DNA of 61,430 nt from a virus (IMGVR_UViG_3300029288_000083:94130-155559), one strand, 5' to 3'. Positions 20,832-60,660 are shown, numbered from the stretch's first letter. Made by a program: numbers and translations. Notes: generated by a model from the sequence alone, not told the origin.

Positions 20832-20855
20832 ATATTTAATTTTTATTAATTAATT

Positions 20856-20891
20856 AAAATCAAATATACAACATTTATGAAGCAATAGCAA
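20856..20891 (-). promoter_or_regulatory. Early promoter, Bacteroidota sigma-A type
   Basis: TTGCTATTGCTTCATAAATGTTGTATATTTGATTTT. Confidence 0.8.
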
Positions 20892-22643: not shown

Positions 22644-22660
22644 GATATTATCAATTAATT

Positions 22661-22696
22661 AAAATCAAATATACAACATTTTGAATGCATTGTCAA
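22661..22696 (-). promoter_or_regulatory. Early promoter, Bacteroidota sigma-A type
   Basis: TTGACA...AATGTTGTATATTTGATTTT. Confidence 0.8.
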
Positions 22697-24461: not shown

Positions 24462-24818
24462 TCATAACTTTACATTTTTTAATAAAAGTGGATAATTGCT
24501 ACATAATCTTCGTGCATCTTCGGATGGTTCGAAAGCGACCGCAGTTATTTCATTATCAATATCTGGTTCACGGAACACAGAATATTTGATTTGTTTTGCG
24601 TCGGCCTTATCTATAAGGTCTTTTAGAGATTGTTCATTCGGTATTGATAAAAAAACCAGGTACTTCGAGCATTCGTGCCATTCTTTTGCAATGGTAGGAT
24701 GATTGTGTTGAAACTCGATTGCAGCATGCGCTGCTTGAACCGCTTGATAGCCTGGTGCAATATCTTGTCTAGCGACAGTTATTAATTTTGAATGGCAATT
24801 AATCTATGTTTCTTTCAT
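24462..24818 (-). CDS. PTH2-like peptidyl-tRNA hydrolase with an in-frame TAG at codon 5
   Basis: Translated by hand: MKET*INCHSKLITVARQDIAPGYQAVQAAHAAIEF...LVFLS..NEQ.L...VFREPDIDNEITAVA...YPLL; no later Met. Confidence 0.8.
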
Positions 24819-24846
24819 GATTATGATTTTTGTTTATTTATTTTTA

Positions 24847-24857
24847 TTATATATACA
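24847..24857 (-). promoter_or_regulatory. Putative late promoter TGTATATATAA upstream of the PTH-like gene
   Basis: TATATAA core about 29 nt upstream of the ATG at 24818. Confidence 0.45.
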
Positions 24858-24909: not shown

Positions 24910-25650
24910 TTATTTTTTTGCTCCTGCATCTTCTAATAGCCTAGAGGATTCTTTTAGCGAGGAACCAGTTGTTATAGTATCATCAATTACACAAACATTT
25001 TTATCAACAATTTTTGAAAGTATCTTATCGTTTATTTTTAGCCAATTCGATATTACGTCACGAAATTGCGGTGCAAATTTCTTTATTGAAAAATAATTGT
25101 TTTTTCTTTGTCTGTCAATATCTGCTTGTAATGTTTTAATGTTCTTTTCTTTTAATCCAAATTTTTCACCTTGTATTATAATCTCATCGAAATTTGGATT
25201 TTTGAATATACCTGCATTGTATGTTACCATATCATAATATTTAGGTAAATGTCGGTTTAACTCATTACTTAAATTTGCAATTAGCGAACTTGAGCTTTCT
25301 AATAATATGATAGTATCAATTTCTTCCTTTAAAATTATATCTGCCATATAAATTGAAGTTCTATTGATAAATTTAGAATAACTATTTGCATCTATAGTAT
25401 AAATTGAACTTTTACCTTTTATTGCATTTAATACTTCTACATAATTAACATTGTGATCATCAGTTCGTTGATACACTGAATATGCAATACCAAACGGTAA
25501 TTTCATTTGATATGGCTTATGCAATTTTCCTTTGCCAAAAGATGTATTTATTAAATCATTAGATAATGAATCGAATAAAATGACGTTATCTTGTATTACA
25601 AAACCTTCGTTTATAATTGATGAATACGTATCGAATTTAGGAATGCGCAT
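24910..25650 (-). CDS. Phosphoribosyltransferase-fold protein (C-terminus continues in the -1 frame to 24878)
   Basis: PRPP-binding motif VCVIDDTITTGSS; GAKK* is followed out of frame by IIGLSIIKGGH*. Confidence 0.75.
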   Translation of the reverse strand: MRIPKFDTYSSIINEGFVIQDNVILFDSLSNDLINTSFGKGKLHKPYQMKLPFGIAYSVYQRTDDHNVNYVEVLNAIKGKSSIYTIDANSYSKFINRTSIYMADIILKEEIDTIILLESSSSLIANLSNELNRHLPKYYDMVTYNAGIFKNPNFDEIIIQGEKFGLKEKNIKTLQADIDRQRKNNYFSIKKFAPQFRDVISNWLKINDKILSKIVDKNVCVIDDTITTGSSLKESSRLLEDAGAKK

Positions 25651-26132: not shown

Positions 26133-26681
26133 TTAATTTATATATTCATCGGTGTCAAGTATTGCAATTGCTCTTTCGACACAACCTTCAGTTAAACCGA
26201 AACCTCTTATGTTATCTCTATGAATATTTACATCAAAATTGTTTGCTGTTTGAACAAATACTTCTTGTTGGTAATCATAATAGCCATTAATGTCATCTAT
26301 AATAACAAATGATTCTATGTTGATTTTATCAAGATGCTTTGTTATCCAAACGTCAATTTCGTCACCTCTACGAATGTCATCAAAATCAACAATCCCGCCG
26401 CCGTTATTCGTTATGAAATTGTATGCGTATACTGCACTAGGCGTAATATCAATAAGTTCTCCAGGCAATTCTCTATCATTCCACATGTTTTGCATTGTTT
26501 GCAAACCAGCATCTTTCCATGTACTGGTCATTACAATTTTTGCATCTGTTGCATCAATAAGAATTGCTAAATTCCTTACAAAATCAGGATGAAAAATATC
26601 GCCGTATCTATCTTGTTTTGTTGTTGCTTGCCACGGAATATTTAATACGCCGTCAATATCTAAAAAAATAATTTTCATCAA
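26133..26681 (-). CDS. HAD-superfamily phosphatase (Swiss-Army-Knife RNA-repair type)
   Basis: IIFLDIDGVLN, IVMTSTWK, FVIIDD. Confidence 0.8.
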   Translation of the reverse strand: MMKIIFLDIDGVLNIPWQATTKQDRYGDIFHPDFVRNLAILIDATDAKIVMTSTWKDAGLQTMQNMWNDRELPGELIDITPSAVYAYNFITNNGGGIVDFDDIRRGDEIDVWITKHLDKINIESFVIIDDINGYYDYQQEVFVQTANNFDVNIHRDNIRGFGLTEGCVERAIAILDTDEYIN

Positions 26682-28347: not shown

Positions 28348-28360
28348 TTGTCAATTTTTT

Positions 28361-28396
28361 AAAATCAAATATACAACATTTAGTATGCAATAGCAA
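28361..28396 (-). promoter_or_regulatory. Early promoter, Bacteroidota sigma-A type
   Basis: Same 36-bp motif. Confidence 0.8.
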
Positions 28397-28397
28397 A

Positions 28398-30143
28398 TTA
28401 ATATGTATATTTGTTTATTAAAGTTTCTCTAGAACTGAATCCTCTACTTCTTGGCGATATGATAACAACAGGAGCAGATTGAGCATTTTTATAAACAGAT
28501 CTTACCATTTGTTTAACAGCAAAATCAATTTCAGTTTGCATTTCTTTTTCTGATAAATGATAAATTGTATCATCATAAAAATCAGGATTCAATTCGTGTC
28601 GATTGAATTCTTGGATAATATCAACTTTAGATTTTCGCGAACGAATAAGATCTGCGCAAATTCCAGATTGTGCAGGATAATTGATTGGATCTTCCATTGC
28701 ATCAGGTAATTCAGCAGCAGGTTTTGTTAATCCATTAAACAATCCTTCAGGAACAATTTCTTTGTCCCAACGATCATTTATATATTTTGCAAATCTGTAT
28801 AACTCAAGTTTTGTCATATCACCAATAGGTTGGTGCACACCTATACTTCCAATGTCATGAAACGATGCCCAGCCCAAAACATTTTCTGTATGATTTCCTG
28901 TTGAAACAATTCCGCTTTTAAATCTGTGATTTGCCGCGATTGCTTGAACAGATCTTAATACTGCATGCATTGTTGAATAACCTGCCAATGGAATTTCTAA
29001 ACCTGAAGATTTAAAACTTTCTTCATCAACTTTTTTGATTTCTTGATAAATTCCTTCAACTGGATTTACATACAATTTGCAACCAAGTAAATCAGCAGTT
29101 TGTGCAGCATACTTATATGTAACCGAACCGTAATTTAAACTTGACGGATTTGTAATGAATACTGTGTGTTCGGGCCCCATTGCATCTACAACAATTGCGG
29201 CAACAATTGAAGAATCAAGACCGCCGGATAGATGTACTTGTGCATTAGGGATTCCACAAAGTTTAAAGAATTCCTTTTGTTCAAAAACCAATGCATCATA
29301 TATTTCAGAAAACTTACTGTTAACTGTACGATTAACGATAGGAATCAAATTTTGTGTATATACACTAAGATTTGCTGTTTTGAAATTTGGTAATTGCGTA
29401 CAAAGATTTCCGATTGAATCGAAAACTAAACTTCCGCCATCATAAATTACAATGTTTTTCAATATGTCACCTAAACCACATGAATTTACCATGATAACAG
29501 GTACATTATTATTTTTTGCAATTTTTTGGAAAAGATTGTAACGAACTTCTTGTTTTCCATAATAGAAATACGATTGGTTGATTGAAATTAAAACCTCAGC
29601 ACCCATATTTACCATTTCTTCTGGAATATTTCTTCTGTGATTTTCAAACCAAGAATCTTCGCAAATTGGAACTCCAATATTTACTGATGAATAATCACGA
29701 AGAACAATGTTGAATATTTTTGTTTCTTTTCCAGGAATAAAATACTTTTTGTCTTCATGATGGTCAGTTGTTGCAAGCAATTGCTTATGATATACTTCAA
29801 GTTTTCCTCGATTTATACATGCAACAGAATTTCTTAATTTTGGGAACCCTGATTTGTTGATTCCGCCACAAGAAACATAACCAACGATGAATGTTTGGTT
29901 GTCTTGTAAATTTTTATTGATTAACACAAGATCTTTGATATAGCTTTCTTGTTTTCTTACAAAATCAATTCTGTCCCATAATGAACCGCAGCAATATCCA
30001 CTTATTGCTGTTTCTGGAAAAACAGAAACATCAACTTTATCATATGCATCTTGTTTTATGCATTCCAAAATTTTATCGAAATTTCCTTGAAGGTCGCCTG
30101 TGACCGTGTTAATTTGATGACCGTTAATTTTCATATATAACAA
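28398..30143 (-). CDS. nadE: Glutamine-dependent NAD+ synthetase (nitrilase plus synthetase domains)
   Basis: VFPETAISGY, YHKQLL, ICED.W; LSGGLDSS, STGNHTE, PIGDMTK, PAAEL. Confidence 0.92.
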   Translation of the reverse strand: MLYMKINGHQINTVTGDLQGNFDKILECIKQDAYDKVDVSVFPETAISGYCCGSLWDRIDFVRKQESYIKDLVLINKNLQDNQTFIVGYVSCGGINKSGFPKLRNSVACINRGKLEVYHKQLLATTDHHEDKKYFIPGKETKIFNIVLRDYSSVNIGVPICEDSWFENHRRNIPEEMVNMGAEVLISINQSYFYYGKQEVRYNLFQKIAKNNNVPVIMVNSCGLGDILKNIVIYDGGSLVFDSIGNLCTQLPNFKTANLSVYTQNLIPIVNRTVNSKFSEIYDALVFEQKEFFKLCGIPNAQVHLSGGLDSSIVAAIVVDAMGPEHTVFITNPSSLNYGSVTYKYAAQTADLLGCKLYVNPVEGIYQEIKKVDEESFKSSGLEIPLAGYSTMHAVLRSVQAIAANHRFKSGIVSTGNHTENVLGWASFHDIGSIGVHQPIGDMTKLELYRFAKYINDRWDKEIVPEGLFNGLTKPAAELPDAMEDPINYPAQSGICADLIRSRKSKVDIIQEFNRHELNPDFYDDTIYHLSEKEMQTEIDFAVKQMVRSVYKNAQSAPVVIISPRSRGFSSRETLINKYTY

Positions 30144-30381: not shown

Positions 30382-30402
30382 AATTTATTTTGTCAATTAA
30401 TT

Positions 30403-30438
30403 AAAATCAAATATACAACATATTACATGCAATAGCAA
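30403..30438 (-). promoter_or_regulatory. Early promoter, Bacteroidota sigma-A type
   Basis: Same 36-bp motif. Confidence 0.8.
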
Positions 30439-30459
30439 TAGTTTCTTACATTATTTTCG

Positions 30460-30532
30460 TGGCCCGTGTGGGTGTCGAACCCACGACCTGAGGGGTTAGA
30501 ATCCTCCGCTCTACCAGTTGAGCTAACGGGCC
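30460..30532 (-). tRNA. tRNA with CUA anticodon (amber suppressor); CCA not encoded
   Basis: GGCCCGT TA GCTC AACTGGTA GAGC G GAGGA TT-CTA-AC CCCTC AGGTC GTGGG TTCGACA CCCAC ACGGGCC A; canonical 73-nt cloverleaf with an A31.C39 mismatch. Confidence 0.88.
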
Positions 30533-32016: not shown

Positions 32017-32037
32017 TTTTTTATTTTATTAATTGTT

Positions 32038-32073
32038 AAAATCAAATATACAACATTACGAAACCGATAGCAA
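32038..32073 (-). promoter_or_regulatory. Early promoter, Bacteroidota sigma-A type (upstream of the NTase-lipoprotein-tRNA unit)
   Basis: Same 36-bp motif. Confidence 0.8.
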
Positions 32074-33375: not shown

Positions 33376-33395
33376 TTTTATTTTATCAATTAATT

Positions 33396-33431
33396 AAAAT
33401 CAAATATACAACATTTATGATGTAATAGCAA
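33396..33431 (-). promoter_or_regulatory. Early promoter, Bacteroidota sigma-A type
   Basis: Same 36-bp motif. Confidence 0.8.
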
Positions 33432-34234: not shown

Positions 34235-34247
34235 TTTTTATTAATGT

Positions 34248-34283
34248 AAAATCAAATATACAACATTTATGAAGCAATAGCAA
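34248..34283 (-). promoter_or_regulatory. Early promoter, Bacteroidota sigma-A type
   Basis: Same 36-bp motif. Confidence 0.8.
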
Positions 34284-55254: not shown

Positions 55255-55277
55255 CGAGATTAAATAAGTTTTATTTT

Positions 55278-55313
55278 AAAATCAAATATACAACATTTTT
55301 GCATCAATAGCAA
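55278..55313 (-). promoter_or_regulatory. Early promoter, Bacteroidota sigma-A type
   Basis: Same 36-bp motif. Confidence 0.8.
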
Positions 55314-57173: not shown

Positions 57174-57195
57174 GTAATATTTTTTTTATCAATTT

Positions 57196-57231
57196 AAAAT
57201 CAAATATACAACATTATTGCTTCAATAGCAA
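57196..57231 (-). promoter_or_regulatory. Early promoter, Bacteroidota sigma-A type
   Basis: Same 36-bp motif. Confidence 0.8.
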
Positions 57232-60595: not shown

Positions 60596-60624
60596 ATGTT
60601 TAAATTTTAAATTATCAATTGTTA

Positions 60625-60660
60625 AAAATCAAATATACAACATTTTGTATGCAGTAGCAA
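60625..60660 (-). promoter_or_regulatory. Early promoter, Bacteroidota sigma-A type
   Basis: Same 36-bp motif. Confidence 0.8.

Follow-up and report, generated by a model that had tools for sequence, protein, structure and literature searches.

A PTH2-like gene of large phages with a conserved early in-frame stop codon and a linked suppressor tRNA gene

The stretch of viral DNA analyzed here, referred to as the window (IMGVR_UViG_3300029288_000083:94130-155559; 61,430 nt), covers the final 61 kb of an IMG/VR virus record of 155.6 kb, for which CheckV estimates a completeness of about one half; a 99%-identical protein is found on a 425-kb contig. On the minus strand of the window, positions 24462–24818 hold a PTH2-like gene with an in-frame amber codon close to its start and a 118-residue product, the stop position included. 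The gene is composed of a start ATG (24818–24816) that together with three sense codons encodes an MKET leader (24807–24818), a TAG at codon 5 that is followed by ATT (24804–24806 for the TAG), 113 sense codons for a PTH2-fold domain of a divergent phage subfamily (24465–24803), and a terminal TGA (24462–24464), all on the minus strand. The minus strand reads ATG AAA GAA ACA TAG ATT AAT TGC CAT TCA AAA TTA and the frame stays open, with zero ATG among the 113 codons after the TAG (24803–24465). This is exactly the arrangement that an initial annotation of the sequence had described, and the TGA at 24464–24462 closes the open reading frame (ORF). The same annotation had stated that the ORF caller missed the gene, which proved correct: the longest table-11 ORF in the frame of the gene is a 38-amino-acid GTG ORF, and standard gene callers would therefore overlook the PTH2-like gene or cut it short. 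By our estimate, about one equally long open frame is expected by chance in this AT-rich window, and the significance of the gene therefore comes from homology and conservation.

The leader of the gene is A-rich and lacks a Shine-Dalgarno sequence, as in the other genes of the phage. A promoter-like GTATATATAAT, which includes TATATAA, is located 28 nt 5′ of the ATG (24846–24856, minus strand). Across the genome, TATATAA is biased toward the coding strand, with 96 matches versus 31 on the other strand; 62 of the coding-strand matches are intergenic, and 46 are located 10–60 nt 5′ of a gene start. The motif likewise precedes the PTH2-like genes of relatives. The A-rich leader and TATATAA element that the initial annotation had listed are thus both present, and the promoter function that it had assigned to GTATATATAAT is putative.

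The protein matches the Pfam PTH2 family (PF01981) with an E-value of 6.9e-10 and a score of 39.6 bits (cut-off of 23), with residues 6–96 aligned to positions 2–102 of the 115-position profile. It also matches PHROG 1866 (E = 1.7e-14), a profile comparison with Pth2 chains in the PDB gave 2zv3 at 3e-9, and 78 database homologs of the 113-residue product were retrieved, the best with an E-value of 7e-61. An AlphaFold2 (AF2) model that was built from 55 homologs has a mean predicted local distance difference test score (pLDDT) of 92.5 and a predicted template modeling (TM) score of 0.85. When the model was compared with known structures using Foldseek, TM scores of 0.71–0.76 were obtained for the Pth2 structures 2zv3, 1q7s, 3erj and 1xty; the top 14 matches were all Pth2 structures, and the best dozen had TM scores of 0.69–0.76. 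The PTH2-like fold proposed in the initial annotation is in agreement with these results. In the model, residues 1–10 form a disordered tail (pLDDT of 56) that contains the stop position. The residues that are invariant across the family are all kept in the window protein. The canonical active-site motifs of Pth2 are absent: the GK segment is a gap relative to 2zv3 (M. jannaschii Pth2), the DAGHT of 2zv3 aligns with an invariant EPD-I-D, and a four-residue loop is also deleted, with the acidic residue E84 being kept. A catalytic role has reportedly been assigned to the Lys of the GK(G)K loop and to the Asp and Thr of D-A-G-x-T. Because the canonical motifs are missing, we refer to the protein as PTH2-like and do not regard it as established to be a peptidyl-tRNA hydrolase; its likeliest chemistry would be the hydrolysis of a tRNA-linked ester. 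The ratio of nonsynonymous to synonymous substitution rates (dN/dS) of the post-stop ORF is 0.11 relative to a homolog with 75% identity, and a second value is 0.39, which indicates purifying selection on the ORF 3′ of the stop.

Scanning IMG/VR with a profile yielded 80 loci with 46–63% identity, many of them on 200–675-kb contigs, and a metagenome scan gave 80 more; 124 homologous genes were left after identical sequences were removed. The PTH2-like subfamily is typical of very large phages. An early stop is present in all 124 non-identical homologs (TAG in 119, TAA in 4 and TGA in 1). In every one of them an in-frame ATG is located 1–11 codons 5′ of the stop, most often 2, and an ATG between the stop and the domain occurs in only three. 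In 79 of the 80 viral loci, M-x(1-8)-TAG stands directly before the domain. The closest relatives illustrate how the stop is retained: L005 (93% protein identity) reads ATG AAA GAA ACA TAG ATT, L006 (75%) reads ATG AAA GAT ACT TAG GTA, L007 (64%) has the TAG at codon 8, and L002/L003 (58%; 248-kb and 86-kb contigs) have the same 18-mer as the window. The 18-mer ATGAAAGAAACATAGATT is thus identical at 93% and 58% protein identity, and the stop is kept from 93% down to ∼46% protein identity while the flanking codons and the length of the leader, which is 1–10 codons, vary. Inspection of the DNA indicated that the ‘Q’ in database homologs is a TAG that was read as Gln by the gene caller and not a sense codon, and the same stop is present in independent assemblies from different samples. 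A nucleotide search of GenBank phages gave no match.

Among 81 genes, 57 have an A immediately 3′ of the stop and 16 have a G, for a total of 73 with a purine. A purine following an amber codon reportedly favors suppression in Escherichia coli. The stop is followed by the codon ATT in 41 of the 81 and by GTA, GTT or GTG in 14. The TAG-gated homologs themselves end in TAA (85), TGA (27) or TAG (7), and at least three of these seven are second internal TAGs; at most 4 of 119 genes therefore use TAG as their own terminator, compared with a background of 8.6%, which is a weak trend of avoidance only. Analysis with RNAalifold found no conserved base pairs around or after the stop in 28 sequences, and the leader in the window folds no better than shuffled sequences (z = −0.78), so the hallmark of read-through driven by a structure in cis is absent. 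In-frame TAGs also occur inside the PTH2-like domain of L064, L065 and L085 (possibly also L013 and L148), 29–38 codons after the first.

The only tRNA gene in the window is a tRNA-CUA of the amber suppressor type (30459–30532, with the start at 30459/30460; minus strand), identified by ARAGORN and by Rfam RF00005 (63.1 bits versus a threshold of 29). It is located on the same strand as the PTH2-like gene, 5.6 kb upstream in the direction of transcription, which is the distance given in the initial annotation. The tRNA has a complete cloverleaf with an anticodon complementary to the stop (the Rfam match covers model positions 1–71), a 7-bp acceptor stem with G1-C72, A73, no encoded CCA, and an anticodon loop UU-CUA-AC. 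It scores fully as an elongator-type tRNA, and its expression, CCA addition, charging and acceptance by the ribosome are putative. The record contains 52 tRNA genes, 50 of which form one island; the tRNA-CUA stands alone, 52 kb from the main array. Its closest match among the tRNAs of the phage is tRNA-Lys(UUU) at 72%, and Lys is a candidate amino-acid identity; the acceptor stems of the suppressor tRNAs of the family are highly diverse. The UUA suppressor in G001 presumably resembles tRNA-Lys. The tRNA-CUA of the window and one of the two suppressors of Xanthomonas phage XacN1 (AP018399: 36047–36122; L256:20047–20122) have the acceptor stem GGCCCGT/ACGGGCC in common, and the variable-loop/T-stem segment GGTCGTGGGTTCGA...CCCAC is identical in both. 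This suggests one lineage of suppressor tRNA that has spread across very different large phages.

The initial annotation had named conservation of the early TAG and its co-occurrence with a CUA tRNA as the check on its reading, and both were observed: in addition to the TAG in 119 of 124 homologs, 69 of the 80 viral loci contain a tRNA-CUA gene in the 10 kb retrieved. All 78 tRNA-CUA genes of the viral loci are on the strand of the PTH2-like gene, and for every gene that has a suppressor, the nearest one is on the same strand. For the 56 genes with at least 3 kb of sequence on both sides, the suppressor is located within 3.4 kb in 49, with a median distance of 789 nt. The spacing of 5.6 kb in the window exceeds the family median of 0.8 kb; otherwise, the locus has the features that define the module of gene and suppressor tRNA.

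The type of stop corresponds to the anticodon of the linked tRNA, with TAG and CUA paired in 89 cases, TAA and UUA in two, and TGA and UCA in one; no mismatched pair was observed among the set of 124 genes. L173 and L229 (ATG ACG TAA GTA) have a tRNA-UUA 1.8 kb downstream, and L168 (..CAT TGA GTT) has a tRNA-UCA 1.2 kb downstream. L029, the sole viral locus without TAG, reads ATG AAA GAA ACA TAA ATT and resides on a 675-kb record that is 98% complete; a search of this whole record for Rfam tRNAs and then with ARAGORN found 40 tRNAs, none with a CUA anticodon and exactly one with UUA. In L130, a TAG is accompanied by a tRNA-UUA, which is able to read UAG by wobble. The nearest relatives of the TAA/UUA gene L173 are TAG/CUA genes at 66% identity, which implies separate switches. 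Matched changes of codon and anticodon are hard to explain unless the tRNA decodes the stop; such joint changes are the type of evidence that is usually taken as proof of functional RNA–RNA pairing.

The pairing of gene and tRNA-CUA is also found in cultured Mycobacterium phages. In Bxz1 (NC_004687: 94750–95510, L090), gp154 is preceded by ATG TAG, and a tRNA-CUA that is annotated as ‘tRNA-OTHER’ follows 0.3 kb after. In Myrna (NC_011273: 33030–33600, L091), gp84 is preceded by GTG TAG, and a tRNA-CUA that is annotated as tRNA-Ser is located 0.13 kb downstream. In total, 206 Mycobacterium phage records match the protein.

Apart from this gene, the phage appears to use the standard genetic code, as the initial annotation had stated. 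The 205 non-overlapping coding-strand genes end in TAA (173), TGA (17) or TAG (15). The extension gained by reading through the terminal stop has a median of 5 codons after TAG versus 6 after TAA, and read-through of TAG adds only ∼5 kb of ORF length (ORFs of at least 150 codons), less than other stop-codon controls. We carried out a census of every in-frame TAG or TGA that is followed by at least 50 open codons, in which only coding-strand results were used because the coding-potential score did not distinguish sense frames from antisense frames at the high AT content of this genome. In this census of the approximately half-complete record, no coding-strand gene other than the PTH2-like gene contains an in-frame TAG. 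With regard to early back-up stops, which would be an adaptation of TAG-ended genes, these genes do not differ from TAA-ended genes. The loci of relatives likewise show short extensions after TAG-ended ORFs, and none of these loci contains more than one long extension. Of the hallmarks of code 15, a phage tRNA-CUA is present, whereas many in-frame TAGs, low coding density and disuse of TAG as a terminator are not seen.

The phage also encodes an opal-reading tRNA-UCA (G000:C1:7757–7830), and no early-TGA gene adjoins it in this phage. A parallel opal gate was considered for gene P0081 (G000:C1:328–846, equal to L008:328–846; minus strand), which has no Pfam family and whose codon 25 is an in-frame TGA with 148 ATG-free codons after it. 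This candidate was rejected, as a relative with 65% identity has Leu at the position of the TGA and the stop is not conserved.

We consider it likely that the enzyme is made only when the tRNA-CUA of the phage reads the UAG. The proposal in the initial annotation that the enzyme is produced only on amber read-through is largely supported by the conservation of the early stop, the linkage to the tRNA and the matching of stop and anticodon, and from these sequence data we infer read-through in vivo and its purpose. Translation would start at the ATG at 24818 and meet the UAG after four codons. If release factor 1 (RF1) acts, only the MKET peptide would be produced; if the tRNA-CUA (30459–30532) decodes the UAG, the full enzyme would be made. 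The inserted residue may be Lys and would be placed in the disordered N-terminal tail, which would be expected to tolerate any residue. The alternation of Ile and Val at the post-stop position is what marks a translated codon. Through competition at the UAG, the output of enzyme would depend on whether the suppressor tRNA is present and on how active it is relative to RF1; the suppressor-gated or RF1-sensing switch suggested in the initial annotation is putative. As to purpose, we favor the view that the enzyme handles a consequence of suppression: it might remove peptidyl-tRNA or stalled-ribosome products that arise from read-through, or keep the suppressor in check. With the gate, the dose of enzyme would become proportional to suppressor activity, in the manner of feed-forward clean-up or negative feedback. 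A self-referential loop, in which the enzyme acts on acylated or peptidyl forms of the suppressor or on read-through ribosomes and its dose tracks suppressor activity, is a tentative extension of this idea that we regard as possible but rather doubtful. If it existed, such a loop would enable phages with the standard code to keep a suppressor active at a level that they can tolerate, as a natural proportional controller that consists of one tRNA and one stop codon, and it would possibly be a first step toward full reassignment of a stop codon.

Several observations weigh against this interpretation. The tRNA-CUA of the window is 5.6 kb away from the PTH2-like gene, is not adjacent to it and belongs to a different promoter-delimited unit. 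A strong suppressor would be expected to carry a cost, since TAG terminates fifteen of the phage genes. The deletion of the Lys loop and the replacement of DAGxT by EPD mean that peptidyl-tRNA hydrolase activity is not assured. Bxz1 and Myrna have ATG/GTG TAG GTG, in which a Shine-Dalgarno sequence precedes the annotated start, the post-stop GTG, by 7 nt, and the protein of these phages could arise without suppression. Finally, a sub-clade with MKLYVL/MEKLYVL N-termini (L092–L095, L225 and L226) lacks the early stop and is located behind a Shine-Dalgarno sequence. This sub-clade still has a tRNA-CUA 10–500 nt from the gene, which implies that the pairing of enzyme and tRNA has a reason beyond gating; L096 of the same clade has a TAG at codon 36 instead.

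One alternative is that the MKET mini-ORF simply ends at the UAG and that the enzyme restarts independently at ATT or another codon, with the tRNA unneeded and the upstream ORF acting as a coupler or roadblock ‘minigene’. ORFs of two to four codons are typical of minigenes, a classic case being the lambda bar minigenes and Pth. ATT, which is known to serve on rare occasions as a start codon in bacteria, follows the stop in the 41 of 81 genes mentioned above, and the GTG after the TAG of Bxz1 and Myrna has a well-spaced Shine-Dalgarno sequence. However, the post-stop codon is GTA or GTT in 11 genes and elsewhere AGC, ACT, ACA, ACG, AAA, AAC, CTT or GGC, none of which is a start codon, and the exchange of Ile and Val amounts to amino-acid conservation. 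The ATG is in frame and at zero spacing in 124 of 124 genes, which coupling does not require. Restart also leaves unexplained why the type of stop tracks the anticodon and why in-frame TAGs occur deep inside L064, L065, L085 and L096, and we regard it as unlikely. The tracking of the anticodon would also be expected if the stop triplet were not decoded but sensed off the ribosome by base pairing with the anticodon, as in a T-box, since contact between specifier and anticodon would produce the same covariation. The absence of conserved pairs in the RNAalifold analysis of 28 sequences and the z-score of −0.78 for the leader do not fit such an RNA, and neither does the constant position of the triplet, in frame between the ATG and the ORF; we give this explanation very little credence.

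Two further alternatives concern the TAG itself. The phage, or a stage of its infection, might use code 15 in general (TAG = Gln), and the PTH2-like gene would then be no more than an ordinary case of recoding. Suppressor tRNAs are well documented in recoded phages (PMC13037316; PMC6784885), this phage encodes a tRNA-CUA, and database pipelines have called homologs on short contigs with TAG as Q. Such general recoding is nevertheless highly improbable, given that TAG terminates 15 of 205 genes, whose read-through extensions are short, that only ∼5 kb of ORF is gained, that the gene is the sole one on the coding strand with an internal TAG, and that the loci of relatives are not recoded either. 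Alternatively, the TAG could have arisen by nonsense mutation or from a mistake in assembly or sequencing, with the gene dead or the codon really being CAG, from which TAG differs by one transition; the contig is indeed a metagenome assembly. Independent assemblies share the stop, 124 distinct sequences keep it, and purifying selection on the post-stop ORF rules out both a sequencing error and a dead gene, so that this explanation is barely credible.

The proposed amber gate can be compared with several known systems. It resembles code-15 phages (crAss-like, Lak and other large phages) in that a phage tRNA-CUA would decode an in-frame TAG for a phage protein; for recoded phages, it has been proposed that the appearance of the tRNA times the expression of recoded genes. 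Unlike in code-15 phages, the standard code is kept here, and the arrangement is a one-gene cassette that always involves the PTH2-like gene, with the stop within codons 2–11 and the tRNA gene near. A similarity to prfB, the gene for release factor 2, is that an early in-frame stop is present in the gene of a factor acting at the end of translation and that output is set by competition at this stop. The prfB stop is a UGA that is passed by a +1 frameshift and senses the gene's own product, whereas here the frame is unchanged and a dedicated tRNA is encoded nearby. Synthetic suppressor gates such as the feed-forward ‘leak dampener’ (PMC7969014) also use an early amber codon and require a separately controlled suppressor; unlike this engineered device, the phage module would be a natural and widely conserved counterpart.

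PTH2 was listed as a jumbo-phage gene by Iyer et al. 2021 (PMC7824862), who suggested that it acts in ribosome rescue. The window protein shares this fold and scores above the Pfam threshold, but the Lys loop GK(G)K is absent and E-P-D stands in place of D-A-G-x-T; neither an early stop nor a linkage to a suppressor tRNA was reported in that study. Orphan suppressors of jumbo phages are exemplified by XacN1 (PMC5852040), whose authors explicitly found no target for its suppressor tRNAs. XacN1 was rejected as an example of the module, because the PTH2 that it encodes, ORF295, is canonical and ungated, and because ORF088, the neighbor of its two suppressors, is unrelated; it differs in this respect from Bxz1 and Myrna, which show the pairing. 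In the literature, jumbo-phage PTH2 and orphan suppressor tRNAs are described separately, and a description of their pairing was not found. Suppressor tRNAs in phage genomes with the standard code have been a puzzle, for which the PTH2-like gene provides a conserved and specific target. If confirmed, the module would be a natural gene-specific amber gate that resembles the designs of synthetic biology, and it would link an enzyme of the tRNA-recycling type to stop-codon suppression and may show how reassignment begins in phages. The version carried by Bxz1 and Myrna makes it testable in a cultured system. A practical consequence is that standard gene callers miss or truncate the PTH2-like gene in many large-phage genomes.

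The genes around the PTH2-like gene, all on the minus strand, encode an RlaP-family nucleotidyltransferase (PF10127; 22707–23495), a protein with a weak match to a phosphoribosyltransferase domain (24910–25650), a protein with a HAD_SAK_2 ‘Swiss Army Knife RNA repair’ domain (26133–26681) and a glutamine-dependent NAD synthetase (28398–30143). The RlaP and HAD_SAK_2 neighbors fit the context of RNA repair to which jumbo-phage PTH2 was assigned by Iyer et al. 2021 (PMC7824862).

Just downstream of the PTH2-like gene, several relatives contain a tiny ORF of the form M-x(1-4)-TAG-I-x-[IV]-R-x-P-stop, for example MKET*IYIRGP* and MK*IRVRPP*, the first six codons of which can equal the leader of the window gene. 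These mini-ORFs are located at L011:10431, L012:10723, L078:9606, L127:869, L143:940, L175:443, L180:4116, L186:3130 and L205:636; a mini-ORF with M-x(1-4)-TAG is absent from the genome studied here. Their IRxP-stop ending is reminiscent of ribosome-arrest peptides, for example those with the SecM IRAGP and RAPP motifs.

A 20-nt motif, TGTTGTATATTTGATTTTAA, occurs ten times on the minus strand of the window (0.01 expected), each time shortly 5′ of a gene start: at 20854–20873, 22659–22678, 28359–28378, 30401–30420, 32036–32055, 33394–33413, 34246–34265, 55276–55295, 57194–57213 and 60623–60642. The TAtaTTTG within it resembles TAnnTTTG, the −7 promoter element of Bacteroidota. Together with the lack of Shine-Dalgarno sequences, the motif suggests a Bacteroidota host and a class of promoters for the host RNA polymerase. 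The unit that starts at 32055 ends with the tRNA-CUA, and the PTH2-like gene is in the unit that starts at 28378.
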